The notes below the pieces were generated by a model that searched no databases, was not told the DNA's origin, and saw only the letters and a list, made by a program, of their open reading frames with translations. This document shows, piece after piece, positions 5,779-54,160 of a DNA stretch of 64,000 nt. Made by a program: the position numbers and the translations under genes. Source of the stretch: Escherichia coli (GTDB lineage Bacteria; Pseudomonadota; Gammaproteobacteria; Enterobacterales; Enterobacteriaceae); the NCBI RefSeq assembly GCF_003019035.1, contig NZ_CP027447.1, one strand, 5' to 3'. Numbering within the stretch: the first letter of the stretch is position 1; every line of letters starts with the position of its first letter.

Positions 5779-5783
5779 ACAGT

Positions 5784-6640: not shown

Positions 6641-6644
6641 TCCT

Positions 6645-8252: not shown

Positions 8253-8539
8253 TTAACGATATTCTGACCGAAGACCGTCGTCTGGTCATCCTGCGTTCCC
8301 TGATGGACTGCAATAACGAAGCCAACGAATCCATCCTTCAGGACTGTCTGGATGCATACGGACACAACGTTTCCCGCGATGTGGTTCGCGGCCAGATTGA
8401 CTGGCTGGCAGAGCAGCAACTGGTCACCGTGGAAAACCTGCGCGGCTTTTATGTCGTAACGCTGACCTCCCGAGGTCAGGATGTGGCGGAAGGCCGCGCC
8501 CGCGTTGCCGGTGTCAAGCGTCCGCGTCCCCGTGCATGA
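8249..8539 (+). CDS. Hypothetical protein upstream of terminase (Mu gp26 position)
   Basis: 96-aa ORF, coupled to neighbours. Confidence 0.55.
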   Translation: MINDILTEDRRLVILRSLMDCNNEANESILQDCLDAYGHNVSRDVVRGQIDWLAEQQLVTVENLRGFYVVTLTSRGQDVAEGRARVAGVKRPRPRA

Positions 8540-9126: not shown

Positions 9127-9133
9127 GAGGGTT

Positions 9134-12327: not shown

Positions 12328-13627
12328 TCTGGCGTATGCCGCACGCCTCCCGCCAAAGGAGGCTGTCGCGTATTTCCGCGCCAAAGGCTACAACATCACC
12401 TGGAACTGGTACGAACAACTGGCAGACGCGCACGCCCGCGCCTTTACCGTTGCCAAAGCCACCCGGATGGATGTCCTGACCACAATCCGTGAGGAAGTGG
12501 AGCGGGCTGTCAGTGAAGGCATCACCCGTGAGGAATTTACCCGCACACTGGCCCCCCGGCTGCAAAAACTCGGATGGTGGGGAAAACAAATCATCGTGGA
12601 TGCAGACGGAAACGCGAAGGTAATCGAGCTGGGCAGTCCGCGTCGTCTGGCAACCATTTATAACGTCAATACCCGTACGGCGTATGGGGCAGGACGTTAT
12701 GCGCAGATGATGAATACCGCCGATTTGTACCCGTACTGGCAGTACGTTGCCGTTATGGATGGCAGAACACGCCCGGAACATGCGCGGCTGCACAATATGG
12801 TTTTCCGGTATGACGACATTTTCTGGCAGACGCATTACCCGCCCAATGGCTGGAACTGCCGCTGTCGCGTCCGGGCGCTGTCTGCGGCCCGCATGAAAGA
12901 ACTGGGGCTACAGGTCAGTTATGGTGCGTCATTCATGAATACCCGCGAAGTGGATGCCGGTACGGATGAAAGCACCGGAGAGATTTTCCGCACATCGTCA
13001 ACCACGTTTGACAACGGTCGGGTAAAAATGACGCCAGATGTGGGCTGGTCATATAACCCTGGTTCGGCGGCATTTGGTACGGATCAGGCACTGATTCGAA
13101 AACTGGTGGAAATTCGCGACGCGCAGTTGCGTGAGCAGGTTGTTCAGACGCTGAATAACAGCCGGGAGCGTCAGCTTGCTTTTTCCCTCTGGCTTAAACG
13201 CTTGGCAGGATCACGTCAGACCGGTCATGAAATCTGGGCACTGGGTTTTATGACGGAATCGGTAGCTGAAGCCGTACATCAGCGCACCGGGAATATGCCA
13301 GCCCGTCTGCTTGTGATGAACGGGAAAAGTCTGGCGACCACTGCTGATGCCGCCCTGAAACCGGAGGATTTACAGCATCTGCCGTCGCTGATGGCAAAAC
13401 CACAGGCAGTATTGTGGGACAGGGAGAACCACCAGTTGCTGTATGTTGTGGCAACCCGTGACGGCATGGCCCGGATTGTGGTCAGAACATCACAGACAGT
13501 CGGCAGGCAGAATGACCGTGCGGATGTGCTGGTCAGTATCAGCCGCGTATCTGCACAGTCGCTTGAAACCGCGATTGCTGACGGGATGATTGACGTACTG
13601 GAGGGGCATGTGGAGGTGAATAAGTGA
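12272..13627 (+). CDS. F: Head morphogenesis protein (Mu F-like)
   Basis: 451-aa ORF; true start may be the internal ATG at 12308. Confidence 0.8.
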   Translation: MPFLLPIYGGVWMPQQTIDLAYAARLPPKEAVAYFRAKGYNITWNWYEQLADAHARAFTVAKATRMDVLTTIREEVERAVSEGITREEFTRTLAPRLQKLGWWGKQIIVDADGNAKVIELGSPRRLATIYNVNTRTAYGAGRYAQMMNTADLYPYWQYVAVMDGRTRPEHARLHNMVFRYDDIFWQTHYPPNGWNCRCRVRALSAARMKELGLQVSYGASFMNTREVDAGTDESTGEIFRTSSTTFDNGRVKMTPDVGWSYNPGSAAFGTDQALIRKLVEIRDAQLREQVVQTLNNSRERQLAFSLWLKRLAGSRQTGHEIWALGFMTESVAEAVHQRTGNMPARLLVMNGKSLATTADAALKPEDLQHLPSLMAKPQAVLWDRENHQLLYVVATRDGMARIVVRTSQTVGRQNDRADVLVSISRVSAQSLETAIADGMIDVLEGHVEVNK

Positions 13628-14094
13628 GTCTTGATATGAACGTTGCCGTGGATGTGCGACGTATTCAGCTTGCACTGGATGAACTGGGAACCGTTACACG
13701 TGACCGCGCCATTCCCCGTGTGATGGCTGCGGCGCTGCTGTCATCCACGGAACAGGCATTTGAACGGCAGGCAGACCCGGATACAGGGAAAGGCTGGGAA
13801 GCGTGGAGCGATTCGTGGCAGGCATGGCGTCAGGATCATGGTTTTGTTCCGGGCAGTATCCTTACCCTGCATGGCGATCTGGCACGCAGCATTACCACCG
13901 ATTATGGACAGGATTATGCCCTGATTGGTTCGCCAAAAATTTATGCTGCCATTCATCAGTGGGGCGGTACACCCGATATGGCACCCCGCCCGGCAGGCGT
14001 TCCTGCGCGTCCTTATATGGGGCTGGATAAGACCGGGGAACAGGAAATTTTTGATGCCATCAGAAAACGCGTCAGCGCTGCTCTGAGGCAATAA
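13624..14094 (+). CDS. G: Virion morphogenesis protein (Mu G-like)
   Basis: 156 aa; position matches Mu. Confidence 0.7.
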   Translation: MSLDMNVAVDVRRIQLALDELGTVTRDRAIPRVMAAALLSSTEQAFERQADPDTGKGWEAWSDSWQAWRQDHGFVPGSILTLHGDLARSITTDYGQDYALIGSPKIYAAIHQWGGTPDMAPRPAGVPARPYMGLDKTGEQEIFDAIRKRVSAALRQ

Positions 14095-14290
14095 ACTGAA
14101 TCAGACATGAAATCAGCTGCACAGATTTTTTAAAACGCGCCACGGGATTTTTAAACCGGTATTTAACGGTGTATGAATCCCGTTTTATCTTCCTTCCACT
14201 TTCTTTCTCCATTACTCAAATAGCATAACCCCAGATTTTCCCGCACCTCCCGCAAACTGACTGCTCACAAACCATGATGAGCAGCAGGAC
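14095..14290 (+). promoter_or_regulatory. G-I intergenic region: late promoter P-I and expected location of the Mu strong gyrase site
   Basis: Only sizeable non-coding gap in the structural block; CATAACCCC...CCCGCACCT motif at 14224-14250. Confidence 0.5.
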
Positions 14291-15376
14291 ATGAAAAAAC
14301 ACGCGATTGGCATTGCCGCACTGAGTGCGCTGTCCATTGACGATGACGGCTGGTGCCAGCTATTGCCTGCCGGTCATTTCAGTGCCCGTGATGGTCGTCC
14401 GTTTGATGTGACAGACGGTCAGGGGTGGTTCATCGACGGTGAGATTGCCGGGCGTCTGGTTGAAGGCGTTCGCGCGCTCAACCAGGACGTGCTGATTGAT
14501 TACGAGCATAACCAGCTACGTAAGGACAAAGGATTACCCCCGGAACAACTCGTCGCGGCTGGCTGGTTTAACGCCGATGAAATGCAGTGGCGTGAAGGTG
14601 AAGGGTTATTTATCCACCCACGCTGGACGGCGGCGGCCCAGCAGCGCATCGATGACGGCGAATTTGGTTATCTCTCTGCGGTTTTTCCGTATGACACCGC
14701 CACCGGTGCAGTGCTGCAAATCCGCCTTGCTGCGCTGACCAATGACCCCGGTGCCACCGGCATGAAAAAGCTGACCGCACTGGCGGCAGACCTTCCCGAC
14801 ATCCTTCAACAGGAGAACAAACCCATGAATGAAACGCTGCGCAAGCTGCTTGCGCGTCTTGGGGTGACGGTCCCCGAAAATGCAGACATCACCGATGAAC
14901 AGGCCAGCGCGGCCCTGAGTGCGCTTGATGCGCTCGAAACAGATGCCGGAAAAGTGGCGGCGTTGTCTGCCGAACTGGAAAAGGCACAGAAAGCCGCCGT
15001 TGACCTGACGAAATACGTCCCGGTGGAAAGCTACAACGCCCTGCGTGATGAACTGGCACAGGCGACTGCACAAAGCGCCACAGCCAGCCTGAGCGCCGTT
15101 CTGGACAAGGCGGAACAGGAAGGCCGCATTTTCAAAAGCGAACGTACCTATCTGGAACAGCTTGGCGGTCAGATTGGCGTGGCGGCACTGTCGGCACAGC
15201 TTGAGAAAAAACAGCCTATCGCTGCGTTATCTGCCATGCAGACCACCACAGCGAAAATCCCGTCGCAGGAAAAAACGGCGGTGGCGGTGCTGTCTGCTGA
15301 TGAACAGGCAGCAGTGAAGGCGCTCGGCATTACAGAGGCTGAGTATCTGAAAATGAAACAGGAACAAGAAAAATGA
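14291..15376 (+). CDS. I: Head protease / scaffold protein (Mu I; in-frame C-terminal Z scaffold expected)
   Basis: 361 aa; Ala/Glu-rich coiled-coil C-terminus typical of scaffolds. Confidence 0.8.
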   Translation: MKKHAIGIAALSALSIDDDGWCQLLPAGHFSARDGRPFDVTDGQGWFIDGEIAGRLVEGVRALNQDVLIDYEHNQLRKDKGLPPEQLVAAGWFNADEMQWREGEGLFIHPRWTAAAQQRIDDGEFGYLSAVFPYDTATGAVLQIRLAALTNDPGATGMKKLTALAADLPDILQQENKPMNETLRKLLARLGVTVPENADITDEQASAALSALDALETDAGKVAALSAELEKAQKAAVDLTKYVPVESYNALRDELAQATAQSATASLSAVLDKAEQEGRIFKSERTYLEQLGGQIGVAALSAQLEKKQPIAALSAMQTTTAKIPSQEKTAVAVLSADEQAAVKALGITEAEYLKMKQEQEK

Positions 15377-38738: not shown

Positions 38739-40058
38739 TTAACTGCCCCAACGACTTTGCAGATAGCTGACCGCTTGTTGAGTCTGTGGCTTATTCAGAT
38801 AGTCCTCACGGAACAAGATTGTGCCGCTAATTTCTGGCACGGCATCGTTAAGATCGAGCTGCTTTTTCAGTTCCGGTACGCCGCCGTTAATCATCCAGTC
38901 TGGCTCTATCTTTGAAGGTTCTCCTACTTTATAGAAGGCGATACCGATATACAGGCGGGTCCTGGTCGGTTTAACGACATCCGCCCACCATTTTGCCAAC
39001 ACGTCATAACGCGCGGCACTCCGTGAGAACGGCCAGTAAATTTGGGGAGCAATGTAATCCAGCAACCCTTGTTCCACCCATCGACGGGTATCAGCGTAGG
39101 ATTCGTCATAGGCTGCCGCGCCTCGGGTATCGGAACCGAGCGGATCGTGTGATCGGTTACGCCACACGCCTGCCGGGCTAACGCCAAATTCGACTTCCGG
39201 CTTAATGCTTTTAATGGTGTGCGATACCTTCGCAATTAACTGCTGAGTATTGTTGCGCCGCCAGTCTGCTTTTGACGCAAATGCGCCGCCGTATTTGCGG
39301 TACGTTTCATTATCATTTAGCCGTGAAGCTGGCGACTCAGTATAGAAATAGTCGTCAAACTGCACGCCATCTACCGGATAGCGGGAAACCACTTCCACAA
39401 CTATTGATGTGATCCAGTCCTGAACCTCAGGTATGCCCGGGTCGAGGACAAAGCGATCGCCGGACGTTCTGATCCAGTCGCGGTGTTGCACATAGACGCT
39501 CGCCGGTTGTTGAGACAGGGTGCTATTCAGTTCCCTGATAGTACCGGGCTTCGTATTAACCGATACGCGATAGGGGTTAAACCATGCGTGTACTTTCATC
39601 CCACGCTTGTGGGCTTCGTCGAGCATAAATTGCAGCGGATCGTAACCCGGATTTTCACCAATCTTACCGGTCATAAGATCGGACCACGGCAAAATTTTCG
39701 ATGGCCACAGGGCGGTACCATCCGGCTTGACCTGGAAAAAGACCGTGTTTATGCCGAGACGTTGCAGATGATCCAGTTTGTCGATCATCGCCTGTTGTTG
39801 TACACGTGCCCGGCTGGCGGGGTTACTAATGTTAACCGAGGATACCGGTGGCCAGTCGAGGCGAGACACCGTGGCCAGCCAGATGCCACGCATCGGTTGT
39901 GACGATTGTTGCGTCGTGGCTGGTGGCTTTGAACCCGCTGGTGGTGTCACCATGGACTCTGGAGGCGTGCTTTTACAACTACACAGTAAAAGTGCCAGTG
40001 CAACCAGTATCGCTGGTCTTCTAATCGCTAATTTCTCGTTTCGGGAGCAGATATCCAT
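38739..40058 (-). CDS. yddW: Lipoprotein glycoside hydrolase YddW
   Basis: 439 aa; lipoprotein signal ...LLCSCK. Confidence 0.85.
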   Translation of the reverse strand: MDICSRNEKLAIRRPAILVALALLLCSCKSTPPESMVTPPAGSKPPATTQQSSQPMRGIWLATVSRLDWPPVSSVNISNPASRARVQQQAMIDKLDHLQRLGINTVFFQVKPDGTALWPSKILPWSDLMTGKIGENPGYDPLQFMLDEAHKRGMKVHAWFNPYRVSVNTKPGTIRELNSTLSQQPASVYVQHRDWIRTSGDRFVLDPGIPEVQDWITSIVVEVVSRYPVDGVQFDDYFYTESPASRLNDNETYRKYGGAFASKADWRRNNTQQLIAKVSHTIKSIKPEVEFGVSPAGVWRNRSHDPLGSDTRGAAAYDESYADTRRWVEQGLLDYIAPQIYWPFSRSAARYDVLAKWWADVVKPTRTRLYIGIAFYKVGEPSKIEPDWMINGGVPELKKQLDLNDAVPEISGTILFREDYLNKPQTQQAVSYLQSRWGS

Positions 40059-40188
40059 ATGTGCTGGTTTCCGGTAAACAGATGTGCGCTCATTCTCGTA
40101 CTTATCCCGGTTAAGTCAATACGACAGCAAGCACGAAAAAGGGAGCGATGAATTATCGCTCCCTTATCTTATAACCATTCAGACATGG

Positions 40189-41724
40189 TTAGTGTTTCTT
40201 GTCATTCATCACAATATAGTGTGGTGAACGTGCACGCGGGTGCAGGAAGAAGTGACCTTTTGGTGCGTTCTGACTGTTGATTGGCTCCAGAGTAACGCCG
40301 GTATTCCCTTTGCCTTTACGATCATGAACAGCATAGAGAATAAAGGGCAGGGCAAGTACCACCAGGAAACTCACGACCAGTAATTCAACATACATATCAG
40401 TAGAGTCACCCTGGATGTTATCCGGCGGCAGGAAGGAAACAATAAACGCCATAATTGAAGTCAGCAGACCGACAATAGCCACGACCAGTTTCACCCCTTT
40501 ACCACCAGGGATATTAAATGTGCGTTTTAAGTCAGGATGTTTGAGAACCAACACAATGTAGCCAATAAACAGCATGAAATAAGCACACAGATAAATCACC
40601 ACCGTCAGCGCCAGTGCGATCAGGAAGGACATGTTGTTACCGCCACCGGTATTGGTGAGGATGATCAACGCGATAGAAGTAATCACCAGCTGCGAAATGA
40701 CCAGCGTTACCGGTACGCCATTTTTGTTCATTTTAGCGAATGCTGCTGGCAGCAGGTTTTTCTGCGCTGTGACATACATCCCGCGAGAAGGACCAACAAT
40801 CCAGGAAGCGATTTCCGCCAGAACACCCAGCAACAGCAGTGCGGAGATCACGCGAACCGTCCACTCAATTTCCGGTGCCACATGTGACATCAGAACGGTA
40901 AAGGTTTGCATTACCCCTGCGGAGAGGTTGATTTCATTACCCGGAATGACCATCGCAATAGACAAACCGCCAACAGAGCTTAAGCAGATTGCCGCCACCA
41001 TCAGTAGTAACATAGCCAGTGGATAGTCGCGCCCGGGGTTGCTCATTTCATTGACGTGGGTTGCGGAAGCTTCAACGCCCATATAACTCAAAATGAAGGC
41101 AACAAATACAACCAGAGTGCCCACTTTAGAGAAGTCAGGGAAGAAGGTCTTCGCATCCATTTCGATAGCAACGGGGGCACCGGAGTGCAGATAAATAGCC
41201 GCTAATGCGATCAAAATAAATGCAGGTAACAGGATACCGGCGAAGAAGCCAACTTTAGCAATTCGCGCCGTGTATTTCGTGCCACCAAACTGCGTTAATG
41301 CCAGCGCCCAAAGAATGATGAGTGCTGCAATAGTTTTGGTAATGGGGTCTTCATTCAGAGCTGGCCATTTCAGGATGTAGGAGAGTGCCCCTAACACGAA
41401 ATAGAGCATCGGAATAAAACCAATGGCGATTTGCAGATAGCCAAATGAGATCGCTGCAAATCCCCATCTCGGCCCCAGAGTATTTGATACCCAGGCGAAG
41501 ACGCCACCTTCTTCCCAGCCGTCGACGGTAGCCATTTCCGCAGCACAAAGTCCCACGGGAATAAACCATAAAATCCCGCCTAATAGCAGGAAGAAGACTA
41601 ATGAAAAGCCCGATGTTGCGAAGGTAGGGTATTCATAAACAGCCATTACCATCGATGCCGTTATGGCAAAGAATCCGAGTAATGTGAGCTGCTTAGCTTT
41701 ACCTGTCTGTACTGATGTAGCCAT
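40189..41724 (-). CDS. gadC: Glutamate:GABA antiporter
   Basis: 511 aa, multi-pass transporter; directly downstream of gadB. Confidence 0.9.
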
Positions 41725-41879
41725 ATTATCCCCCTAAAACGGTATTCCTGTCGGAACCGCACCTGTTTTGTTCTGAAGCGTATTCAGAACAATATTTTCC
41801 GTTGCTAATGCCAGTGAACAGACTTTGGAAATTGTCCCGAAACGGCTTCGTTTCGGGACACCGTTACCGTTAAACGTTA

Positions 41880-43280
41880 TCAGGTGTGTTTAAAGCCGTT
41901 CTGCTGGGCAATACCCTGCAGTTTCGGGTGGTCGCTGAGATATTTCAGGGAGGCTTTGTAGTCTTCCAGCAACAGTTCAGCAAAGTCCATTTCGAAGCCG
42001 CGACGACACATAATGCGCATCACCACGATGTCGGTGGCTTCACCGCCGAGAGTGAAGGCCGGAACCTGCCAGCCGCGCAGACGCAGACGTTCAGAGAGGT
42101 CGTACAGGGTGTATCCCGGATCTTCACCATCTTTCAGTTTGAAGCAAACCGCCGGGATGCCTTCGTCCGGGCGACCGGTACAGATGAACTCATACGGCCC
42201 CAGTTTGGCGATTTCATCCGCCAGATAAGCGGCAACCTGGTAGGAAGCGTTCTGTACTTTGGTATAGCCTTCACGACCGAGGCGCAGGAATTCATAGTAC
42301 TGTGCAATCACCTGACCCGCCGGGCGGGAGAAGTTGATGGCGAAAGTACCAATCTGACCGCCGAGGTAGTCAACGTTGAACACCAGTTCCTGCGGCAGCG
42401 CTTCTTCATCACGCCAGATAACCCAGCCGCAGCCCAGCGGAGCCAGACCGAATTTATGGCCTGAAGCACTGATCGATTTCACACGCGGCAGGCGGAAGTC
42501 CCAGACGATATCCGGAGCGACGAACGGTGCCAGGAAGCCACCGCTGGCAGCGTCGATGTGCATGTCGATGTCGATACCGGTGTCGGCCTGGAATTTATCC
42601 AGCGCATCGTGCAGCGGCTGCGGGAACTCATAGTTACCGGTATAGGTCACGCCGAAAGTCGGCACCACGCCGATGGTATTTTCGTCGCAGGCTTCAATCA
42701 TGCGTTTCGGGTCCATAAACAACTGACCGGGGCGCATAGGGATCTCACGCAACTCCACATCCCAGTAGCGGGCGAATTTATGCCAGCAGATTTGTACCGG
42801 ACCGCACACCAGGTTTGGTTTATCCGTTGGCTTACCTGCAGCTTCCATACGCTTGCGCCAACGCCATTTCATCGCCATCCCGCCAAGCATACAGGCCTCG
42901 GAAGAACCAATGGTGTTGGTGCCAACGGCCTGACCATTTTTCGGTGCAGGCGCATGCCACAGATCGGCAACCATGTTTACGCAACGCAGGTCGATGGCTG
43001 CGGATTGCGGATATTCTTCTTTGTCGATCCAGTTTTTGTTAATGGATAAATCCATCAACTTGTGGACGTTTTCGTCGTCCCAGGTCTGGCAGAAAGTGGC
43101 CAGGTTCTGACGAGCGTTGCCATCAAGATATAATTCGTCATTGATAATCTGAAATGCGACATCGTCGCGCATTTCGTGCAGCGGAAAACGTTTTGATTCT
43201 GCGATAGTGGAAATAGACTTTGCACCAAAACGTGAATCGAGTAGTTCCGACCTTAAATCCGTTACTTGCTTCTTATCCAT
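41880..43280 (-). CDS. gadB: Glutamate decarboxylase beta
   Basis: 466 aa from [21 protein letters not shown]...; the six-frame ORF has a 23-codon upstream extension. Confidence 0.9.
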
Positions 43281-43359
43281 TTTAAACTCCTTAAAATGAT
43301 TGGATCGCATTAAAAAAGTAGGATTTATCGATAAAGTAAGCAAGTGCAAAGGACTCGTG

Positions 43360-43379
43360 TTTAAATAACAAAATCCTAA
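43360..43379 (-). promoter_or_regulatory. GAD box (GadE-binding site) upstream of gadB
   Basis: Reverse complement reads TTAGGATTTTGTTATTTAAA. Confidence 0.6.
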
Positions 43380-43641
43380 TGTTATTTATCGCGAGATATT
43401 ATGTGAATTATATTTTATCATTGAAAATCAATATATTACTGAATTCTTGGGTGGTGGCAAGGTGTTTTATGCTGTTATTTTTATGCACTTTCTACGCCTC
43501 CTGAATTATCACGTAAAAATCAGACCTTAAAATATCACTATTAGCACTCGGCTATTATTTTGAACGCATTTATAAAATTATTACATAAAAATGGCGAATA
43601 TTGCTAAAATCCCCGCCAACGAGGTGTTGACGGGGCTGTGA

Positions 43642-46437
43642 TTATTTTGGCAATAATACTCCGGTATAGGTATTCACCGGATGAGAAAGATATTGTTTAA
43701 CGGCAGTGTTAACATTCTCTACCGTCATTTGTTTCAATAATTGCTCCTGCTCAGTCCATGCTGCAGGATCGTCATATTGAATAAGACTATTTACAATGGT
43801 GTTCGCTAATTGTTGAACGCTACGCTGTTGGATATCGAGGCTGCGCTGAACGTTTTGCTGGTATTCATTCAGTTCTTGCTCACTGATCCCTTTAGCCAGA
43901 CGCTTAACCATCACTTCATTCGCTAACGTTAACAGTTCATCATGTCGTTCTGGTTGACAAGTAAAAGCCAGCAAATGACTGATATCTTTGGCCTGAGGAT
44001 CAACCGAGAGACGAGAAGAAACGCTGTATGCTCCAGATGCCTGTTCACGAATATTAACGCGTAGATCTTTTGCCAGTGCGACGTTAAAAGCATCGAGCGC
44101 CATACGCGTCTCCAGATTTACAGGTGTCCGGGAATCATAACGCTTCCACTGTGAAACCTGTGCCACAGGTTCATTTTGTTCTTTTACAGTAACCGATGCG
44201 TTGTCCGTCGCGCGAGTTAATGGTTTACCTGCGGCTAATGGCGAATCAGAGTGTTTGATTGATCCTAAGTAACGCGTAATTAACGCCACGAGTTTGTCTT
44301 CTGCGACATTACCGACAATGACAAACGTGATATCCGCTGGAGATGAAAACAACTGGCGATCGGCAGCCAGCGCATCTGCGGCAGTAAACTGTGCAATCTG
44401 ATTTTCTTGCGGTAATTTCGTGCGGTTATCAGCATAGCGCGTCTCATACATCTGCTGGGCGAATTTCTCCGCTGGACGCTGGTCGAGCGTTTTCAACGCC
44501 TGAATTTGAGCATTTTGTAGCGATGCCCAAATATTATCGTTAATCGTGCTGTGGGTGATTCGCTGGTTAATCAACTGGAAACCAGGTTCAGGGTTATTAG
44601 TCCGCGCGCTAACAGAGAGCAATGTATTCATGCCACTGACTTTACTGCTCATGGTTACCGAGTTTTCCGCACTCCAGCGTTTCAGGCTGGAAGAGGAGAG
44701 TTCACCAACGCCGCTTCCGCTTACTGCTTTATTTGCCAGCGCGATAAGTGATTTTTGCTGCGCAGGGAAACTTAAATCGCCTTTATTAGATACGGCAGTA
44801 ATTTGTAGCTTTTGCTCTTCACCCGCGGATTTTGCCAGAATAACCCTGGCACCATTGGAAAGTGTTAATGATGTCAGATTCTCAGCCAGCGTTTCTTTGC
44901 TGCTAATTTCCGCCTGTGGGTCAGCGTCTACTGTTAACGATAAATTTCTGCCTGGGAAGATGTAAGCTGCCAGCTTTTTGTTGGCGTACTCTTTTTCCAG
45001 CGCCAGGATAGCCGCAGGAGACAATGCTTTTTTGGCGGCAACTTCATTGTTTACCATTTGCTCCCAAAATGCGTCCTGGTTCTTTCTTAACTGCTGCCAT
45101 TTTTCCGCCAGACTTTGCACGGTAATTTGCTGCCACAGACGTTTCGAAAGTTGATATGTCTCTTCCGGCGACAAGAACGGCGTATTATTTAATGAGCTGG
45201 ATGCCAGGCGACTGGTCAGCATACGTAAATCACGCTCAGCTTGCTGATCAACCGCATTTTTCAGCCAGGTAAGGCGGGTAGATTTAACATCATCGAGTTC
45301 TTCAGCAGAAAAGCCATGCTGATCAATGGTTGCCAACTCTGCCATTAATGCATTCGCAGCATCCTGCATATTATCGTCTTGTGCATTTACACGGAAAAAC
45401 AGCGACTGATAATCGGGTGCAATTTTGACGCTGCGCGCAGTGCCGCCAGAAATAGTCTTCAACTCGCCCGACTGTATGCGTTCTTGCAGACGTTGGTTGA
45501 ACAGCTGAACTAACATGCTCCATTCAGCTTGTTCGATAAAGCTTTGCTCATCGCTCACTTGCACCATTGGCAGGCGATAATAGAGTGCGATGCCGTTCAC
45601 CCGGTTTTCTTTATCATTGATGATATTAAAGCGCAGGTGGTTTTCGGCTTTTGTCGGCCAGACGCGATTTTCAGCTGCTTTGTTAGCCGGAAGCTTACTT
45701 AAATTATCCTTTATCAGCGCCAGCGCTTCTTTACTGTCGATATCGCCGACCACAATAAAGGTCATATTATTTGGTTGATACCAGCGTTGATAAAATTGGC
45801 GCAATTGTGCCGGTGTGACCGTGGCGACGGTATCCATCAGGCCGATAGGTTCACGGTCTAAATTACGGGTATTTGCCAGCAGGAAAGGGCGGCGCGCCTG
45901 AGAGGTGCGCCATTTCGCATCCTGATGGGCACGCCATTCCTCAGTAATTACGCCGCGTTCAGCGTCTACTTCGAGTTTTTCAAAGGTTGCGGCATTACTC
46001 CATTCACTGAAGATTGCCATCACTTGTTGCAGATTTTGTTTCTGCGTAGTCGGCAAACTCACCTGATACACTGTTTCGTCATAGCTGGTATAGGCATTAA
46101 CATCGCGACCAAAACGCAGGCCCATTGACTCAAATGTTTCGATGACTTTATTACCCGGCCATGTTTTTGTGCCGTTAAACATCATATGTTCTACAAAATG
46201 AGCCACGCCGCGCTCATTGTCCTCTTCCTGCAATGAACCGGTATGAATTTGCAGCCATAAATTTACCTGATCCTTTGGTTGAGCATGCGGATAAATCATA
46301 TATCGCAAGCCATTGTCCAGTTGCCCGGTAATTAACTTTTCATCCTGCGGTAAGGCGGCGGCAATCAGTCGCCCGGGGAGCAACAGAGTTGCCACTAACG
46401 TCAGTAAGAAACAGAGGTTTCTCATAATTATCTCCAT
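43642..46437 (-). CDS. pqqL: Periplasmic M16-family zinc protease
   Basis: 931 aa; signal peptide; HFVEHMMFNG zinc-binding motif. Confidence 0.85.
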   Translation of the reverse strand: MEIIMRNLCFLLTLVATLLLPGRLIAAALPQDEKLITGQLDNGLRYMIYPHAQPKDQVNLWLQIHTGSLQEEDNERGVAHFVEHMMFNGTKTWPGNKVIETFESMGLRFGRDVNAYTSYDETVYQVSLPTTQKQNLQQVMAIFSEWSNAATFEKLEVDAERGVITEEWRAHQDAKWRTSQARRPFLLANTRNLDREPIGLMDTVATVTPAQLRQFYQRWYQPNNMTFIVVGDIDSKEALALIKDNLSKLPANKAAENRVWPTKAENHLRFNIINDKENRVNGIALYYRLPMVQVSDEQSFIEQAEWSMLVQLFNQRLQERIQSGELKTISGGTARSVKIAPDYQSLFFRVNAQDDNMQDAANALMAELATIDQHGFSAEELDDVKSTRLTWLKNAVDQQAERDLRMLTSRLASSSLNNTPFLSPEETYQLSKRLWQQITVQSLAEKWQQLRKNQDAFWEQMVNNEVAAKKALSPAAILALEKEYANKKLAAYIFPGRNLSLTVDADPQAEISSKETLAENLTSLTLSNGARVILAKSAGEEQKLQITAVSNKGDLSFPAQQKSLIALANKAVSGSGVGELSSSSLKRWSAENSVTMSSKVSGMNTLLSVSARTNNPEPGFQLINQRITHSTINDNIWASLQNAQIQALKTLDQRPAEKFAQQMYETRYADNRTKLPQENQIAQFTAADALAADRQLFSSPADITFVIVGNVAEDKLVALITRYLGSIKHSDSPLAAGKPLTRATDNASVTVKEQNEPVAQVSQWKRYDSRTPVNLETRMALDAFNVALAKDLRVNIREQASGAYSVSSRLSVDPQAKDISHLLAFTCQPERHDELLTLANEVMVKRLAKGISEQELNEYQQNVQRSLDIQQRSVQQLANTIVNSLIQYDDPAAWTEQEQLLKQMTVENVNTAVKQYLSHPVNTYTGVLLPK

Positions 46438-46481
46438 GCGAAAACCGGGCGAATTTACCCGGTTAAGTAAAATCCGAACTA

Positions 46482-48854
46482 TTAAAATTTCATGCTGACA
46501 TCAAGCCAGAAAGTACGGCCACTGGCGTAGGTCGCCACACCGGTATTCGTTGTATCAACAGCGGTTTTGCTATCCAGTACATTGAGAATATCGGCACTGA
46601 ACGTCAGGTTTTGTTGTTTCAGAAATTGTGGCGTCCAGGACAAGCGGGTGTCCCAGGTCAGGCTGCTATCCAGTTTTTCGTCAACATACTGCTTGTAATC
46701 TGAATATTCGCTGATGTATTGCGCATTCGTCTTACCCAGGATAATGCGAGCTTTACGCGCTTCTTGCCAGGTCAGCGTATTCGCCCACACCAACCCGTTC
46801 GGTTGATGCGTGAAATCCATGTTTAAGGAGATCTTTAGTGGATTATTAAAATCCGCCACTGGAACGCTATCGTAAGAGACCAGATTACCGTTATAAACCA
46901 CCTGGTTATCACCGGTATTGCTCTCCTCATAACCATTGTTTAACGACAAGTTGCCCTTGCTCTTGATATAGCTAAAGACAATTTGCGGGTTAATATCTAC
47001 CTGGCTGATATGCAGGGGTTCGGCCAGTTCAAAACTGAGGTTGAACGAATGCGTTTTGGTTTTGCCGTCGTTGTTATATTCAGTAATGGTGGTTTTAGTC
47101 GCGCTGTCGGTACGACTGCTTTTGCTGATTTGATCATGCGCTTCACGGTAAACATAGTTTGCGCGCGCAATAACGTTCTTACTGATTTTTTGCTGCAATC
47201 CCATTGCCAGTTCATCGTTATAAGGCGTTTTCAAATCCTGATAACGCGTCAGGGTTTTATTGCCTGATACCGATTCCGTCCAGCTATTGCGAATATCACG
47301 TAATCCCATATCAAGAATATTCCCGCCATAGTAACGGTTATAACCTGCGGTAATCATTGAGGTTTGATCAGCAAAAATATCCCATTCCGTCATAAAACGC
47401 GGGGAGATATTGTGGTTTGACAGATAGTTGTCATAGTCATACCGCACGCCGGGCATTAATGACACATTACGCCAGCTAATGCGATCCGCCATATACAGCG
47501 TGTAGTTGTCAATTCCCAGGCTGCCTTTACCTTTATGGTAAATGGTATGGTTAGTTTTCTTTCCGGCAGCATTAATCACATAGGATTCAGACTGGTTATG
47601 GCGTTCAGTCCATGCATCGGAATAGATGTATTCCGCGCCGAAGTAGGGTTGATGCGAAACATTACCCACGGTGAATTTTTGCCAGTCCAGGCGTGTTTTG
47701 AAGGTGTAATTATCTACAGCCTGGGAAATGTGTCCTAATCCGCCACGGGTGCAACGCCCTGAAATATCACCATATGTACATGAAAGTTCGGTGTACCAGA
47801 TGTCATGATCGTGACGGGTATAATCACTAATATGATCCCAACCAACGGTGGTACGCAGTTTGGCCCATGCGAGCTGGGTATCCATATCCCATGCCAGACC
47901 ATAGGATTTATTACCCATTTCGCGATCAGACTCCGGGAAGGTGCTGGTATTATAATCACGGCTGGAGCCGGTATATTTTAAGGTTAAATCGTGGGTAAAG
48001 CGGTCGCTGGCAAACCAGGTAAATTTGCTCAATGCAGTATCGATAACGTTTTTATACTGTGCCCGGCCGGCGACAATGCCGTCATTCGAAACATAATCCG
48101 CGCGGGTGATATCAGACTGGCGGCGCGATAAACCGGCGGTAACGCCAAAGTTATCAGCGAGTTCCTGATTAAACGACAAGGTATAAAAGTTCTTTTTAAA
48201 ATCTGGAGAGTAATAAGTACTTCCTGAAGAACCTTGATTAAATGCGCTCTTGTTATTCTCATCGATATGCGATGTTAACCAGTCCGAACGCGTAGTGCGA
48301 TAACCCAGTTTCACGCTGCTATCATCAGCGTTGAAGCGTTTGATCTTTGCATCAATTACCCCGCCATTGAAGCGACCAAATTCAACCGGCACAAAACTGT
48401 CATAAAGCGTCACATTGTCCAGTAAGCTGACATCAAGATAATAGCCCTGTGACATCCCGCTAATATTGGTTGCACTACTGGCATCGGACTCATTCGCTGG
48501 GTTCAGGTTATTCGTTGCACTAATGCCATCAATCAAATAGGCATTCTGGTAGGGCGACGCACCGTGAATAGAGATTTTCTCCGGGCGAATATCTCCCTGG
48601 TTCAATGAGGTACTTTGCGTTGAATCCATGCGTACCGCAGGGTTGGTTCTCAGCAGATCGCTGATATTGCCATTCCCGGTCGGTAAACGCTCGATGCTTT
48701 CACTGGTGTAATGCGTGTTGCCGTTTACGGGTACAGGGACAGGAGCATAGACCGTCATCTCTTCAAAAACATGCATGTACATATTTTTGTCATCGACGGC
48801 CTGCGCTACATCAGCGCCACATAAAATGACGCCAGGAATAAGAACTCGCTTCAT
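46482..48854 (-). CDS. yddB: TonB-dependent outer-membrane receptor
   Basis: 790 aa; signal peptide; C-terminal aromatic residue. Confidence 0.85.
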   Translation of the reverse strand: MKRVLIPGVILCGADVAQAVDDKNMYMHVFEEMTVYAPVPVPVNGNTHYTSESIERLPTGNGNISDLLRTNPAVRMDSTQSTSLNQGDIRPEKISIHGASPYQNAYLIDGISATNNLNPANESDASSATNISGMSQGYYLDVSLLDNVTLYDSFVPVEFGRFNGGVIDAKIKRFNADDSSVKLGYRTTRSDWLTSHIDENNKSAFNQGSSGSTYYSPDFKKNFYTLSFNQELADNFGVTAGLSRRQSDITRADYVSNDGIVAGRAQYKNVIDTALSKFTWFASDRFTHDLTLKYTGSSRDYNTSTFPESDREMGNKSYGLAWDMDTQLAWAKLRTTVGWDHISDYTRHDHDIWYTELSCTYGDISGRCTRGGLGHISQAVDNYTFKTRLDWQKFTVGNVSHQPYFGAEYIYSDAWTERHNQSESYVINAAGKKTNHTIYHKGKGSLGIDNYTLYMADRISWRNVSLMPGVRYDYDNYLSNHNISPRFMTEWDIFADQTSMITAGYNRYYGGNILDMGLRDIRNSWTESVSGNKTLTRYQDLKTPYNDELAMGLQQKISKNVIARANYVYREAHDQISKSSRTDSATKTTITEYNNDGKTKTHSFNLSFELAEPLHISQVDINPQIVFSYIKSKGNLSLNNGYEESNTGDNQVVYNGNLVSYDSVPVADFNNPLKISLNMDFTHQPNGLVWANTLTWQEARKARIILGKTNAQYISEYSDYKQYVDEKLDSSLTWDTRLSWTPQFLKQQNLTFSADILNVLDSKTAVDTTNTGVATYASGRTFWLDVSMKF

Positions 48855-48891
48855 TTATTTATATCTCCGTACAGCAGGGCTTTTATTGTTT

Positions 48892-50577
48892 TTATAAAAC
48901 CGCGCTAATGTCACAAATATCATCGGCCAGGTTCCAGACACCGGGTTGATGTGTAACCATAATGACGCCGCTTGTGGGGAGTTTTTCTCGCACTAAACGC
49001 AGTAAGCGGATTGCCTCTTGTTCCTCAAGATGAGAGGTAGTTTCGTCAAGAAATATCCATTTCGGACGTCGTAAAATTAATCGAGCCAGGGCGATACGTT
49101 GTTTTTCGCCGCTGGAAAGAATATCTCCCCAGCGATCGTGGTCATGAATACGCGCAGCCAATTTCCCCAGTCCAACCTGATGCAGTACTTCACTCAACGA
49201 TTTATCGTCTACGGACAGGGGAAGTGCTTTACAAATAATCTCTTTCAGTAAGCCGGTTTTGATTAACGGTGTTTGTGACACATACCAACTGTCAGCAGGA
49301 GAAGAAATATCACCTTTAAACCACGGCCAGCAGTGGGATAATGTTTTAAGCAGTGTGGTTTTTCCCGCACCAGAGTAACCTTTCAGCAATAGCCATTTGC
49401 CTGGCAAAACATGAAAGTTCAGGTTCTCTAATATGATCTTATTATCAGGAGTACGAATACTCGCGTCAGCCACTTGTACCGCATGTTGGCAATTTTTAGG
49501 CTTATTCGTAGGGCGCTGTTCGGTGAGTTGATGGAACTCATACAAGCGATCGATAACCGCAGCCAGTTCAGCAAGTTCATCATATTTATAAATAAACCAG
49601 CTTAAATTGTTCGATACCAGCATAAATGCCTGGCGCGATTTCATCAGTCCGCCCAGATTGATCTGTCCGCTAATAAACTGCGGCAATAACAGAAAGTAGG
49701 GAAGAACGCTAAGCGAGCGCGAATAAATATTCTGCCAGTAATCAAGCCACCGCTGACGATTCATTAAACGATGCCAGTTCTCTTTAATGGTATGAAAATT
49801 TTCGCTCAACTCCTGGCGTTGTAGAGACTCAGCATTGCTTAGCGCAATCAGTTCTGCCTGCTTATTATGCTGCACAAGATTAGTTCGAAATGTCGCTTCG
49901 CTACGTTGTTTTTCCACATTAAGCGGACGAATACGTTTACCAACCTTATGGGTAAATAAAGTTCCACCGATCACAATGAGCACGACGGTATAGACCATAT
50001 ACCCCTGGATATTCCATTCAGTTCCACCAACAGTGAATGAGAGCGTACCCGCGCTTTGCCAAAGAATAACGGTAAAGGTGATCAGCATGCTAAGTGACTG
50101 GATGAAGCCAAATGAAAGACTGAGCGTTTTGCTGATCAGTAAGAGAATGTCTTCAGCGATACGTTGGTCAGGGTTATCTGTATTTTTATGCTCGCCGTAG
50201 ATCTGCGTGAAGTAGTAGTTTTTATCTGCAAACCAGCGATTAAGGTAGTAATCTGTTAACCATTCGCGCCAGCGAATAGTCAGTAGTTTAATTAACCATG
50301 TTTTGTTTACGGATATTAATACAAAGATCCCCAGCAGGGCAGGGAACCAAAGGACAAGCTGCCAAAGCTTATCAGTTTCTTTCTGGCTTAGCGCATTGAA
50401 AAAATCATTATTCCAGTCGTTTAACCAGACCTGAATTTTAACCACGCCAAGGATCATGGCGAGGATAATAATGATTAACAACACTGAAGTTTTATTATTC
50501 TTACGCAGCCAAAAGGGCTTCAGCAGACAGAGATACTTTGCTATCAACATACAAAACGTAATGGGAATGGTTATCAT
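48892..50577 (-). CDS. yddA: ABC transporter, fused permease and ATPase
   Basis: 561 aa; Walker A (GYSGAGKTT) and ABC signature (LSSGEKQR). Confidence 0.85.
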   Translation of the reverse strand: MITIPITFCMLIAKYLCLLKPFWLRKNNKTSVLLIIIILAMILGVVKIQVWLNDWNNDFFNALSQKETDKLWQLVLWFPALLGIFVLISVNKTWLIKLLTIRWREWLTDYYLNRWFADKNYYFTQIYGEHKNTDNPDQRIAEDILLLISKTLSLSFGFIQSLSMLITFTVILWQSAGTLSFTVGGTEWNIQGYMVYTVVLIVIGGTLFTHKVGKRIRPLNVEKQRSEATFRTNLVQHNKQAELIALSNAESLQRQELSENFHTIKENWHRLMNRQRWLDYWQNIYSRSLSVLPYFLLLPQFISGQINLGGLMKSRQAFMLVSNNLSWFIYKYDELAELAAVIDRLYEFHQLTEQRPTNKPKNCQHAVQVADASIRTPDNKIILENLNFHVLPGKWLLLKGYSGAGKTTLLKTLSHCWPWFKGDISSPADSWYVSQTPLIKTGLLKEIICKALPLSVDDKSLSEVLHQVGLGKLAARIHDHDRWGDILSSGEKQRIALARLILRRPKWIFLDETTSHLEEQEAIRLLRLVREKLPTSGVIMVTHQPGVWNLADDICDISAVL

Positions 50578-50867
50578 TAGCGAAAATTTATTGTGCCATC
50601 CAATGATTATCTATGGCAATGATATACTGATGAAATTTATTTAAGTATCATTTAACAATATGAAATATAAAGAAATATTTCATTTTCAGTGGTTATGGTT
50701 ATGCTATTGATAATCAAGGGTATTGCTAATGCCCTGACGCATACCTCGTAAGCCAGGATTTTCGCAAAGGAAGATGATGAAGACGAAACACCCGACAGGA
50801 ATTTATGTCGGGTGCCTTGTTAAGGTCATAAGAAGGAGGCTAAGAATGGAGCTAAGGGGGAGCGTTA

Positions 50868-52040
50868 TTAATTATTCTCCATTTGTTTTGCAACATCCAT
50901 AATGTGGTAAAGCGGTACTCTGTTCTTAGCTAACTCCACCATGGCGTTCATATAAGGTACCATGGTTGAAAAAAGGATTTTATAACCTTCGCAAAAATAG
51001 GAAACAGTCTCATTGTTTACTTTAGTAATACGATGCTTAGGGCAACCACCATTGCAGATAGGTTTATATGCACATTGCTGACATTTCGCTGAAATCCGTT
51101 TTTTTTGCGCTGTCAGTTGAACACTGTTCATCGTTTTGAGTTCAGATTTATTAATGTTTCCAATTTTGTACTGTGGATAGACAAAATGATCGCATTCGTA
51201 AATATCTCCATTACTTTCAACAACCAGATTATCCTTGCAGGATTCCTGGAAAATACAACTGGTATGCCCATTCCCCAAAAAACGGCTGACAAAGCTTTCA
51301 AACTGACGGATGAAAATTTCACCCACATCGTTTTTAACCCATTGCATAAAAATGGTTGACATAAACTTGCCATAAGCCGTGGGAGGCACAGAAAAATCAA
51401 TGATACGGAATGTGTTCTCACTATGACCACTGAAATCAATATTCGGCGTCCCGGTTTCTAGCAATTCGATAAATTGCATATGTTTACTGCCGATAGATTT
51501 TAAAAAATGATAAACCTCATGAGGGTAATGGACATTAACGTTATTAATGACGGTTAACGTATTAAACTCTACTTGATATGATTTCAGACGCTCGATGGCT
51601 GCTATCACTTTTGCAAAAGTACCGTTGCCTGAATTACTGCGTCTGTAACGGTCATGTAGCTCCTGGGGGCCATCGATCGAGATACCAACCAGAAACTCAT
51701 GTTCTTTGAGAAAGGCACACCATTCATTATTCAATAAAATGCCATTCGTTTGTAATGCATTAAAAATACGTTTTTGGCCTGCATAGCGTTGTTGATAGTG
51801 AATAACTTTACGGAAAAAATCCAGGCCAGCCAGAGTGGGTTCACCCCCTTGCCAGGTAAAATAGACCTGATTGCCAGACGCTGCGATATATTGTTTGATG
51901 AACTCTTTCAGAGTGCTGTCATCCATCCATTTTTCATGAGTAAACTGCGACTCTTTTTCAAGGTAAAAACAGTAATCACATTTGAGATTACATTGAAAAC
52001 TGGAGGGCTTGGCTGTAACGTGCATCGCTATCTCGCTCAA
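50868..52040 (-). CDS. ydeM: Radical-SAM anaerobic sulfatase-maturating enzyme homologue
   Basis: ORF has two candidate ATG starts; CxxxCxxC-type motif (CNLKCDYC). Confidence 0.8.
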
Positions 52041-52076
52041 TAAGGCGGCGGAAAAATCCGCCGCATGAAGGTTTAG

Positions 52077-53759
52077 TTATTTCGCTTCGCTTAGTGCTTT
52101 CTTGATATTGTTAAACTTCTCCTGATTTACCTCGCTAAGCGGTGGTTGGCTGCTGTCGATAAACTCTCTTACCACGCCTTGCATCTCTTTAACGACCTGC
52201 GGATTGGCGGCCGCAAGGTTATCTTTTTGCTGTAGATCCGTCAGTTTGTATAGACCTAACTGATTGTTTTCTACTGTATAGACTAGCGAATAATCGTTAT
52301 TTCTCACCGTATAAGAGAATTGGCTTAAATCCTCGGTGTTGGGGTTATGCGGGTAATCGTCTGACTGATGGCGGACAAATTTGTGGTAATTATCCCAGAA
52401 GGGAATATTTTCCTCATCAAACCAGTGAGAATAAGAGGTTATCCAGGTCAGATTTTTATGTGGCTCGCCTTGTTTCTTATCTTGCAACCACGGCAGCAAG
52501 GAAACGCCATCCAGCTTAAGGTCTTTTGGAATGCTGATATCGGCTGCATCAAGAGCTGTCGGGTAGAAATCCATTGCGGAAATCAGCTTGTCATAATTAC
52601 CGGGTTGAAGTTTTCCTTTCCACCACATAAACATTGGGGTGTGAGTACCGCCAGGATAAGTCTGACTCTTATAGCCTTTTTGCGCCCCGTTCAGCGGCAG
52701 AGGACCATCGATAACCGCACCATTATCGGAGGTAAAGAGAATAATAGTATTGTCATACTGTCCGTTTTTCTTCAGTTGTTCGAGAATGCGTTTTACACCC
52801 TGATCAACAGAATAAACGGAAGCGTAGTAGTTATCTGCTGTTTGACTACCGGTATTAAATTGCTTCTGATATTGCTCCGGTGCAGGATTATCATTTGGCA
52901 GGTGCGGAGCATTATAAGCCAGGTAAAGCATAAAAGGCTGGTCAAGTGTTTTGGCACGATCAACAACGCCAATTGCCTCATCGGTTAACTGATCGCTGAT
53001 ATAACCTTTTGCTGGGACGCGTTCACGGTTTTTGAACAGTGAAGGGGAGTTGTAATATGCCGTTCCTGCAGCGTGGAATCCCATAAAGTAATCAAAGCCA
53101 CGGTTTTGAGGTTGCCATTCTTCCGCAGAAAATGTGGTGAAGTTGTCATGATAGTCACGCGTTTGTTTATCTTCCGGTACCGGCACATTACTGATTTTTG
53201 ACAAGTGCCATTTACCTACTGCTGCAGTGTAATAACCATGATTCTGGAATAATTCAGGCAAGAAAGTTTCTGTTAGCGGAATACCATCCTGAGCATCGGT
53301 ATTGGAATAGACACCAAAGCGGGCGGGCGCTCGACCGGTCATTATTGCGGCGCGGGAGGGGCCGGAAACACCGTGCGCCACATAGCCGTTAGTAAAACGT
53401 ACGCCTTCATCCATTAATGAAAGGAGCGTCGGCGTTGATTTTTGCGCAGCTTCAATGGCTTTATCTATCCCTATTTTGTAGGTATCGACAACTTCACGAT
53501 TTTCCATTGTTTTTGGGTCAAAAGATCCCTTATCAAAAGGAAGTTGTCCATAACCAAGATCATCCATGGTCAGTACGATAATATTTGGCTTTCCTTTGGT
53601 ACTGTATTCAGTCGGCGTAAAGTCTGAGAAAGCAACGTTTGTTTTGGTTGCTTTCAGCTTTACATCATCTGCCGCATGAGCAGCAAATGCAGCCATACCA
53701 GATGCCAGTATCAAAGATATCGAGGTACTTACGACACTTTTCTTTAATGCAGACTTCAT
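52077..53759 (-). CDS. ydeN: Sulfatase
   Basis: 560 aa from MKSALKK... with signal peptide; the six-frame ORF has a 60-codon upstream extension. Confidence 0.85.
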   Translation of the reverse strand: MKSALKKSVVSTSISLILASGMAAFAAHAADDVKLKATKTNVAFSDFTPTEYSTKGKPNIIVLTMDDLGYGQLPFDKGSFDPKTMENREVVDTYKIGIDKAIEAAQKSTPTLLSLMDEGVRFTNGYVAHGVSGPSRAAIMTGRAPARFGVYSNTDAQDGIPLTETFLPELFQNHGYYTAAVGKWHLSKISNVPVPEDKQTRDYHDNFTTFSAEEWQPQNRGFDYFMGFHAAGTAYYNSPSLFKNRERVPAKGYISDQLTDEAIGVVDRAKTLDQPFMLYLAYNAPHLPNDNPAPEQYQKQFNTGSQTADNYYASVYSVDQGVKRILEQLKKNGQYDNTIILFTSDNGAVIDGPLPLNGAQKGYKSQTYPGGTHTPMFMWWKGKLQPGNYDKLISAMDFYPTALDAADISIPKDLKLDGVSLLPWLQDKKQGEPHKNLTWITSYSHWFDEENIPFWDNYHKFVRHQSDDYPHNPNTEDLSQFSYTVRNNDYSLVYTVENNQLGLYKLTDLQQKDNLAAANPQVVKEMQGVVREFIDSSQPPLSEVNQEKFNNIKKALSEAK

Positions 53760-54160
53760 AAATGTTCCTCTTCTTATTGTACTTAATTCCAAAGTAATTT
53801 TACGAAGAGAAATAAGTGGATGTAAGTGAAGTGAGTCACATAAAGAGATAGCAGATTTAGCTAAAAAAAGAGAAATAACAGTCCATAAACTGTTGACATT
53901 ACTTTCTGTTCTACTAAGTAATTTCTCGTTGATAAACAACTAATCTATTGATATTTAACAAATTATTTAATTTCACCGACAAAATACCGAATTGAGATCA
54001 TAAATAATCATGCAACGGGTTATGCAAATGCATAAATATGTGATGGCTGTCACTTATTTATTTCAAGAAATATATCACCTAAAAACAACGCGGGGCAGGG
54101 AATGGCTGCCCCATTTAATTCTTACGCAGCGTGTGTGGTTGACTACTCGTTAGCAAATAA

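Follow-up and report, generated by a model that had tools for sequence, protein, structure and literature searches.

Three adjoining genes on one strand of the stretch of Escherichia coli DNA analysed here (64,000 nucleotides, in the following called the window) encode a protease, an outer-membrane receptor and an ABC transporter. The question they raise is whether the three act as one unit and, if so, what that unit would bring into the cell. The initial annotation, made from the sequence, read them as a single operon for protease-coupled import. We identify the locus as yddA-yddB-pqqL, a chromosomal operon of E. coli that has already been studied and is iron-regulated; as a whole it is best explained, with good probability, as one Fur-repressed unit encoding a Fus-like 'protease-associated import system'. 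The operon is reported to contribute to the fitness of uropathogenic E. coli during systemic infection of mice, with fitness effects of yddB and pqqL published for mouse bacteraemia, and it is a candidate case of whole-protein import across the E. coli outer membrane.

Identity of the locus

The three genes are:

48892..50577, minus strand: yddA, open reading frame of 561 amino acids
46482..48854, minus strand: yddB, open reading frame of 790 amino acids
43642..46437, minus strand: pqqL, open reading frame of 931 amino acids, or 927 from the ATG at 46425

These coordinates, taken from the list of open reading frames, are exactly the limits at which the initial annotation had placed its three same-strand genes, and a Pfam search matched the domain content that it had described (M16 protease with signal peptide, receptor, fused ABC permease-ATPase). 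The spacers it had given as 38-44 bp measure 37 bp between yddA and yddB and 44 bp between yddB and pqqL, so that the upper value stands while the lower is off by one. Transcription runs from yddA through yddB to pqqL, opposite to the order in which its title named the genes. With pqqL beginning at the RefSeq ATG at 46425, the second spacer lengthens to 56 bp. This is the better-supported start: a GGAG Shine-Dalgarno sequence precedes it, and none precedes the ATG at 46437.

Sequence comparison assigns the window to E. coli, with 100% identity to strain SCU-301, on whose chromosome RefSeq labels the three genes pqqL, yddB and yddA. The published operon of K-12 and CFT073 (Subashchandrabose 2013; Grinter 2019) lies at the same locus, between the same neighbours (gadBC on one side and ydeMN on the other) and with the same Fur box, and the proteins encoded in the window match the PDB entries 6ofr, 6ofs and 6oft. 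The differences are allelic only, the DNA being 98% identical to K-12 derivatives and about 2% different. The locus is thus real, ordinary and previously known, with nothing new in it, as the initial annotation had stated; the window sequence is an ordinary allele that adds nothing beyond published knowledge. An Rfam scan of positions 40000-54000 found no RNA family.

Transcription and Fur control

The following features surround the three genes or lie between them:

50590..50619, minus strand: candidate sigma-70-like promoter from a consensus scan, with -35 TTGCCA, an 18-nt spacer with GATAATCATT and a TG-extended -10 CACAAT
50563..50581, minus strand: Fur box GCTAATGATAACCATTCCC, which agrees with 15 of 19 consensus positions and extends over the start codon of yddA
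46443..46464, minus strand: small hairpin AACCGGGU-N6-GCCCGGUU in the yddB-pqqL spacer, with UUCGC after it
43606..43635, minus strand: terminator-like hairpin with a 10-bp stem, a 5-nt loop and AUUUU, beginning 7 nt past the pqqL stop codon

The short spacers, a single promoter region with a Fur box before yddA and a single strong terminator hairpin after pqqL all agree with the reading of the cluster as one operon. Further, the mapping by RT-PCR that had been suggested as a check is already published: yddA, yddB and pqqL are co-transcribed in strain CFT073 (PMC3855560).

The Fur box is the top consensus match across the entire 64-kb window, and it is identical to the CFT073 Fur box GGGAATGGTTATCATTAG (PMC3855560). 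Fur binding upstream of the operon is published, as is direct regulation by Fur in both K-12 and CFT073, and the operon is derepressed in a fur mutant and induced more than 30-fold in urine (PMC3855560). With a Fur box present here and Fur-dependent expression published, the operon belongs to the Fur regulon. The transcript levels in CFT073 were unchanged by a chelator alone (PMC3855560), whereas PqqL protein did rise under iron limitation in a later study (PMC6793856). A second Fur-like site in the window (10745-10763, 14 of 19 positions) falls where two genes meet, inside coding sequence, and is probably a chance match.

It should be kept in mind that the promoter is a prediction for which position is the sole argument: the consensus scan was not above shuffled sequences, neither for promoters (19 sites in the region versus 16.7 expected) nor for terminators (8 versus 8.1). 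The hairpin after pqqL was overlooked by that scan because its T-run is short, and was identified by reading the sequence and then folding it. It has a folding energy of -18.6 kcal/mol and a z-score of -4.85, which none of 200 shuffles equalled. The hairpin in the yddB-pqqL spacer has a centroid energy of -12.8 kcal/mol, and the 71-nt fragment that holds it reaches no better folding energy than shuffled versions of itself (z -0.85). We considered an attenuator at this place and rejected it on that comparison; read-through across the spacer has been demonstrated by RT-PCR (PMC3855560).

YddB and PqqL

YddB has a Pfam Plug domain (3.9e-07). The Pfam search gave no match to a barrel domain; the protein does match crystal structure 6ofr, which is YddB itself and is described as a 22-strand barrel (PMC6793856). 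The only other sequence match in the PDB is 4zgv, the ferredoxin receptor FusA (3.7e-80). The N-terminus resembles a signal peptide and ends in AQA, a TonB-box-like EEMTVYA is found at residues 31-37, and the last residue is Phe. At the level of sequence these features identify YddB as a TonB-dependent outer-membrane transporter of the FusA clade, and its published structure, which is FusA-like, has a pocket of about 28 x 29 Å (PMC6793856).

PqqL, of which crystal structures are also published (PMC6793856), contains a Peptidase_M16 domain (3.9e-41) and two Peptidase_M16_C stretches (3.2e-54). In the PDB it matches 6ofs and 6oft (PqqL itself), 9ldy (1.4e-82) and, over its full length, FusC (6b03, 1.2e-59). 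The HxxEH motif is intact as HFVEH at residues 80-84, with the distal Glu at residue 167, and the N-terminus carries a hydrophobic signal peptide, MRNLCFLLTLVATLLLPGRLIAA. From these features PqqL is classed as an M16 zinc protease of the FusC type, secreted and built of four domains. In agreement with this, PqqL is periplasmic, is induced by iron limitation and is proteolytically active on F/Y-F/Y-V/A peptides (PMC6793856).

The historical name of PqqL implies a different function, namely that of a protease in the biosynthesis of pyrroloquinoline quinone (PQQ). In NCBIfam PqqL matches PqqF weakly (5.1e-13), and E. coli pqqL has been cited as complementing Methylobacterium pqqE/pqqF mutants (PMC3855560). 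However, PqqL scores 48.7 bits against the PqqF family TIGR02110, far under the cut-off of 320, and among the open reading frames and annotation of the locus there are no other pqq genes. PQQ is not made by E. coli (PMC3855560), and the periplasmic location of PqqL (PMC6793856) also speaks against this role. We take it as effectively refuted, with a probability close to nil.

YddA and the co-occurrence of the three genes

In YddA, the Pfam domains ABC_membrane_2 (8.9e-44) and SbmA_BacA (2.5e-34) are fused to ABC_tran (5.2e-18), and the motifs of the nucleotide-binding domain are complete: Walker A GYSGAGKT, Q-loop VSQ, signature LSSGE, Walker B IFLDE and an H-loop-like VTHQ. The best PDB relative is Rv1819c of Mycobacterium tuberculosis (6tqe, 2.3e-67, residues 35-552). 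ABCD1 and ABCD4 rank next, and there are also distant matches to ABCB1 and CydDC. YddA is accordingly classed, from its domains and motifs, as a fused permease-ATPase ABC half-transporter with an SbmA-like type IV fold, in the YddA/BclA clade.

Rv1819c, BclA and Burkholderia cepacia YddA share this clade and the fused layout of membrane and nucleotide-binding domains with E. coli YddA. Cobalamin transport has been described for Rv1819c, and B. cepacia must have its YddA to be susceptible to the lasso peptide ubonodin. Peptides are imported by BclA relatives, and a YddA-like ancestor appears to have given rise to SbmA. For these relatives no dedicated receptor and protease have been reported, whereas the E. 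coli gene is clustered with both. Since the relatives of YddA act as importers, we infer that YddA would also work in the import direction; a metabolomics study likewise suggests uptake.

To see how far the association of the three genes extends, we compared seven loci that encode YddB homologues in unrelated genomic neighbourhoods. In five of the seven, at YddB identities of 61, 45, 44, 30 and 28%, the gene for the YddB homologue has both an M16 gene and one for an SbmA-like ABC protein beside it, and among these five the two most distant loci have a shuffled gene order. The identity of all three proteins declines in parallel across the relatives. That the set is kept together in distant relatives argues for functional coupling, as far as gene neighbourhood can indicate it, and this independent confirmation is a mildly useful addition to what is published.

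The co-occurrence also bears on a report that YddA is a multidrug exporter (PMC9728188). In an acrB-deleted background, MIC and fluorescence assays suggested ATP-dependent efflux of ethidium and norfloxacin, and the type IV 'exporter' fold as well as the distant matches to ABCB1 and CydDC would fit an efflux pump. The cluster would then not be an import pathway, and the adjacency to yddB and pqqL would be incidental to the function of YddA. However, even in distant taxa the ABC gene is found together with those for the transporter and the M16 protease, the closest relatives of YddA are importers, and repression by Fur suits acquisition rather than efflux. Further, the earlier overexpression studies, as they are cited in the metabolomics study, saw no change in drug resistance. 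We therefore regard efflux as very unlikely, and in the following YddA is treated as a putative importer.

A probable Fus-like import system

The model of 'protease-associated import' was published by Grinter et al. 2019 (PMC6793856), and both this model and the PDB matches to FusA, FusC and Rv1819c are consistent with the protease-coupled import that the initial annotation had proposed. In the FusABCD system of Pectobacterium, FusA is the receptor, FusB a TonB-like protein, FusC the M16 protease and FusD the ABC transporter. The E. coli cluster has a transporter of the FusA clade; adjoining it is PqqL, which like FusC is a single-chain, four-domain periplasmic M16 protease with an HxxEH motif; and 37 bp upstream of yddB lies the gene for YddA, a fused ABC transporter with SbmA_BacA/ABC_membrane_2 and ABC_tran domains. 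YddA has been described as a homologue of FusD (PMC5095587), and we take the homology from that source, not from a comparison with the FusD sequence. As for FusABCD, the E. coli genes are clustered and their expression is iron-regulated.

There are also differences. The gene order in E. coli is ABC transporter, receptor, protease, unlike that in Pectobacterium; YddB is just 24% identical to FusA (PMC6793856); and plant and human ferredoxins are not substrates of PqqL (PMC6793856).

The E. coli cluster also differs in its lack of a dedicated TonB gene of the fusB type: there is no TonB-like open reading frame between gadB and ydeM. Pectobacterium uses such a TonB to engage protein cargo, and we have counted its absence against the model. 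The published definition of the family does not need FusB, and many members are without one (PMC6793856).

The steps of import would most likely be as follows. When iron is limiting, Fur would come off its box over the start codon of yddA, with joint transcription of all three genes. YddB, in the outer membrane, would be driven by the general TonB-ExbBD of the cell, because no dedicated TonB is encoded at the locus. A small globular protein, probably iron-bearing, would be caught in the large extracellular pocket of YddB and brought into the periplasm, where PqqL would open and close around it and cleave it. Finally YddA, as an ATP-driven importer with an exporter-type fold, would carry the cofactor or the peptides that are set free onward to the cytoplasm. 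Here a protein as cargo, the iron that it carries and the import of the product by YddA are what we infer.

Instead of a protein, the cargo might be a peptide or a small molecule (a metallophore, a ribosomal peptide or a corrinoid-like compound), with PqqL trimming or detoxifying peptides in the periplasm and YddA taking up the product. The relatives of YddA (Rv1819c, B. cepacia YddA with ubonodin, BclA) handle peptides or cobalamin. The peptides that PqqL cuts are short and share a narrow motif, and none of the proteins tested was cleaved, among them human ferredoxins, globins and plant ferredoxin (PMC6793856). YddB has been linked to the entry of novobiocin, and in the metabolomics study cells overexpressing yddA depleted serum of amino acids and of a dipeptide more strongly. 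However, the metabolomic signals were weak, with proline alone seen in both mutants. Structurally, YddB is closest to FusA, an importer of protein, the YddB pocket has room for a globular protein of about 28 Å, and four-domain FusC-type M16 proteases enclose entire small proteins. On balance a peptide or small-molecule cargo is possible but rather unlikely, and we favour import of a protein.

The initial annotation had found the substrate not evident from sequence, which holds: a review of M16 proteases from December 2025 lists no substrate of PqqL. It had also proposed growth assays of deletion mutants with protein-bound iron or other candidate substrates. For the mutants, growth tests are published in iron-limited LB only, where yddB and pqqL deletions grew like the wild type, even with all other iron TonB-dependent transporters absent (PMC6793856).

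Loss of the operon within E. coli

The cluster had been described as conserved host content, and this is true of about 85% of the species only: yddB is missing from 785 of 5426 complete E. coli genomes (14.5%). The operon is dispensable, since this fraction of the genomes has lost it. The count is, like the comparison of distant loci, a mildly useful addition to published work. Two clean, independent deletions of about 6 kb explain 726 of the 785 genomes that lack yddB; in window coordinates, allele A removes 44556-50855 and allele B 44805-50757. The literature on pqqL with ST131 gave nothing useful for placing the deletion alleles in a lineage. In other strains yddA is interrupted by IS insertions.

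Pectocins exploit FusA, and by analogy YddB could let in a bacteriocin, a phage or an antibiotic through mimicry of its protein cargo. Repeated clean losses could then reflect selection against YddB as such a gate, although we consider this quite unlikely. If it were true, toxins that kill only yddB-positive strains might reveal the natural substrate.

Gene organization and regulation

The cluster consists of three consecutive ORFs on the minus strand, transcribed in the order yddA, yddB, pqqL (limits and lengths from the ORF list):

48892..50577, minus strand, yddA, 561 aa
46482..48854, minus strand, yddB, 790 aa
43642..46437, minus strand, pqqL, 931 aa

The 7.6-kb region shares 100% identity with the E. 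coli SCU-301 chromosome and 98% with K-12 derivatives. In SCU-301 it is annotated as pqqL, yddB and yddA, flanked by gadB-gadC and ydeM-ydeN. The feature is real, and the initial annotation located and interpreted it correctly, also in calling it not novel: the operon is already known in detail. The ORFs have exactly the limits and strand given there. Of its spacing of 38-44 bp, the upper value holds for yddB-pqqL when longest-ORF starts are used, but yddA and yddB are separated by 37 bp, not 38. The pqqL ATG at 46437 has no ribosome-binding site. Four codons downstream, the ATG at 46425 follows a GGAG at a distance of 7 nt, is the RefSeq start, and yields a signal peptide of more typical form (MRNLCF...). 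Since both GGAG and RefSeq support this start, the true yddB-pqqL spacer is probably 56 bp.

A Fur box at 50563-50581 overlaps the yddA start codon. It matches 15 of the 19 positions of the 19-bp Fur consensus, the single best match in the 64-kb window, and is the same sequence as the Fur box reported in CFT073. Two further signals surround the genes:

50619-50590, candidate sigma-70-like promoter just upstream of the Fur box, with GATAATCATT in its spacer (prediction only)
7 bases past the pqqL stop, terminator-like hairpin, 10-bp stem followed by AUUUU

The hairpin folds at -18.6 kcal/mol (z -4.85), and none of 200 shuffled sequences folds as well. Because the Fur box lies at the yddA start, with a candidate promoter upstream and a strong hairpin after pqqL, the predicted promoter, Fur box, three genes and putative terminator read as one unit. 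The claim of a single operon, for which RT-PCR mapping had been proposed, was already backed by published RT-PCR showing co-transcription of the three genes; in the same study the operon is more than 30-fold up in human urine and derepressed in a fur mutant, and yddB and pqqL mutants are less fit in mouse systemic infection (Subashchandrabose et al. 2013; PMC3855560). According to two later studies, Fur binds upstream of the operon and regulates it directly in both K-12 and CFT073; RyhB may act on it positively.

More Fur-box-like matches (14/19 and 13/19) cluster at 50461-50485, some 100 bp into the yddA coding region; they may extend the Fur binding site or have arisen by chance. Another, palindromic, Fur-box-like sequence (10745-10763, 14/19 on both strands), at the junction of plus-strand ORFs 8942-10789 and 10789-12327, is probably chance. 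The yddB-pqqL spacer contains a small GC hairpin (46443-46464) followed by UUCGC, and the folding of this hairpin is not significant compared with shuffled sequences; it could modulate pqqL expression or mRNA stability. An Rfam scan of the region gave no family match. The yddA-ydeM intergenic region holds a 41-aa plus-strand ORF (MKTKHPTGIYVGCLV..., 50777-50902) that overlaps the 3' end of ydeM; RefSeq labels it "hypothetical protein" here, and K-12-type records name "protein YneP" among the features of the region.

Properties of the three proteins

In YddB the domain search finds a Plug domain; the N-terminus resembles a signal peptide, EEMTVYA resembles a TonB box, and the C-terminal residue is Phe. 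Its PDB matches are limited to YddB's own entry, 6ofr, and to FusA, a receptor for ferredoxin (4zgv, 3.7e-80). PqqL carries a signal peptide, the motif HFVEH (80-84) with E167, and one active M16 domain beside others that are inactive. In the PDB it hits 6ofs and 6oft, which are PqqL itself, as well as 9ldy (an unnamed M16 protein) and, at full length, FusC (6b03/6b05/6brs).

The protease-coupled import reading of the initial annotation is the published model of Grinter et al., who coined the term "protease-associated import systems" and described YddB, PqqL and YddA as homologues of FusA, FusC and FusD of the Pectobacterium ferredoxin uptake system. They solved the structures of YddB, which has a pocket of roughly 28 x 29 Å, and of PqqL. 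PqqL is periplasmic, is induced by iron limitation and cleaves F/Y-F/Y-V/A peptides, but not ferredoxins or globins; deletion mutants grow normally in iron-limited LB (Grinter et al. 2016 and 2019; PMC5095587, PMC6793856). Unlike Fus, the E. coli cluster has a different gene order, a cargo that is not ferredoxin, and no FusB-type TonB, so YddB presumably relies on the general TonB-ExbBD system. The substrate was said not to be evident from the sequence, and this is borne out: a December 2025 review still gives none for PqqL.

YddA joins an ABC_membrane_2/SbmA_BacA transmembrane domain to an ABC ATPase whose motifs are intact (Walker A GYSGAGKT, Q-loop VSQ, signature LSSGE, Walker B IFLDE, H-loop-like VTHQ). 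Its top solved relative is M. tuberculosis Rv1819c (6tqe/6tqf, 2.3e-67, residues 35-552), a cobalamin transporter according to the literature, followed by members of the ABCD family, among them ABCD4, which transports cobalamin in lysosomes. Deletion of yddA in B. cepacia gives resistance to the lasso peptide ubonodin; B. cepacia YddA is therefore needed for uptake. BclA proteins, of the same clade, import peptides, and SbmA derives from a YddA-like ancestor according to a 2026 study. One paper (PMC9728188) instead reports YddA as a multidrug exporter; however, earlier yddA overexpression studies, as cited in another paper, left drug resistance unchanged. Given this result and the uptake roles of Rv1819c, B. 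cepacia YddA and the BclA clade, we favour import of PqqL products by YddA, a step that we infer.

Conservation and loss

The homology search with YddB found relatives down to about 25% identity, and seven loci were examined (identities by tblastn). Three of them, one from an Orbaceae genome, keep the order ABC, receptor, M16 at YddB identities of 61, 45 and 44%, each in a different genomic neighbourhood. At 30% identity, locus L006, positions 5465-15306, has the genes in the order receptor, ABC, M16. A TonB gene and an ECF sigma/FecR pair accompany them, and the receptor bears an STN signalling domain; this suggests substrate-induced cell-surface-signalling regulation, absent from the E. coli operon. 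In Muribacter muris (28%) the receptor and M16 genes have a convergent ABC gene beside them. In one further locus a cytochrome c peroxidase replaces the protease, an arrangement that Grinter et al. described in some relatives, and the last has the receptor alone. The other two proteins diverge in parallel with YddB (YddA 52-33%, PqqL 47-25% identity). That the set persists where neighbours and gene order have changed speaks for a single, integrated function.

In several single-member "fusion" proteins from the search, YddB is linked to portions of YddA or PqqL (P0003-P0005, P0009-P0011, P0016-P0017); frameshifts or gene-calling errors in single assemblies are the most likely cause.

Within E. 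coli, 4641 of 5426 complete genomes give a match to a yddB probe, and 785 (14.5%) have no yddB. Two independent deletion alleles were found, in window coordinates:

44556-50855, type A, 6300 bp, 3-bp microhomology
44805-50757, type B, 5953 bp, 5-bp microhomology

Both are clean: the promoter, yddA, yddB and the 5' two-thirds of pqqL are gone, and a 3' pqqL stub stays beside gadB. Junction probes find the two types in 726 genomes in total, 160 of them type B, including LF82 and NRG 857C. It is speculative, and we think improbable, that the repeated loss was selected for because a toxin or phage enters the cell through YddB. Some otherwise near-identical strains have yddA split by IS1 or IS3 insertions (genome matches H2, H3, H31). 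Because 785 genomes lack yddB, the description of the cluster as conserved host content is about 85% true.
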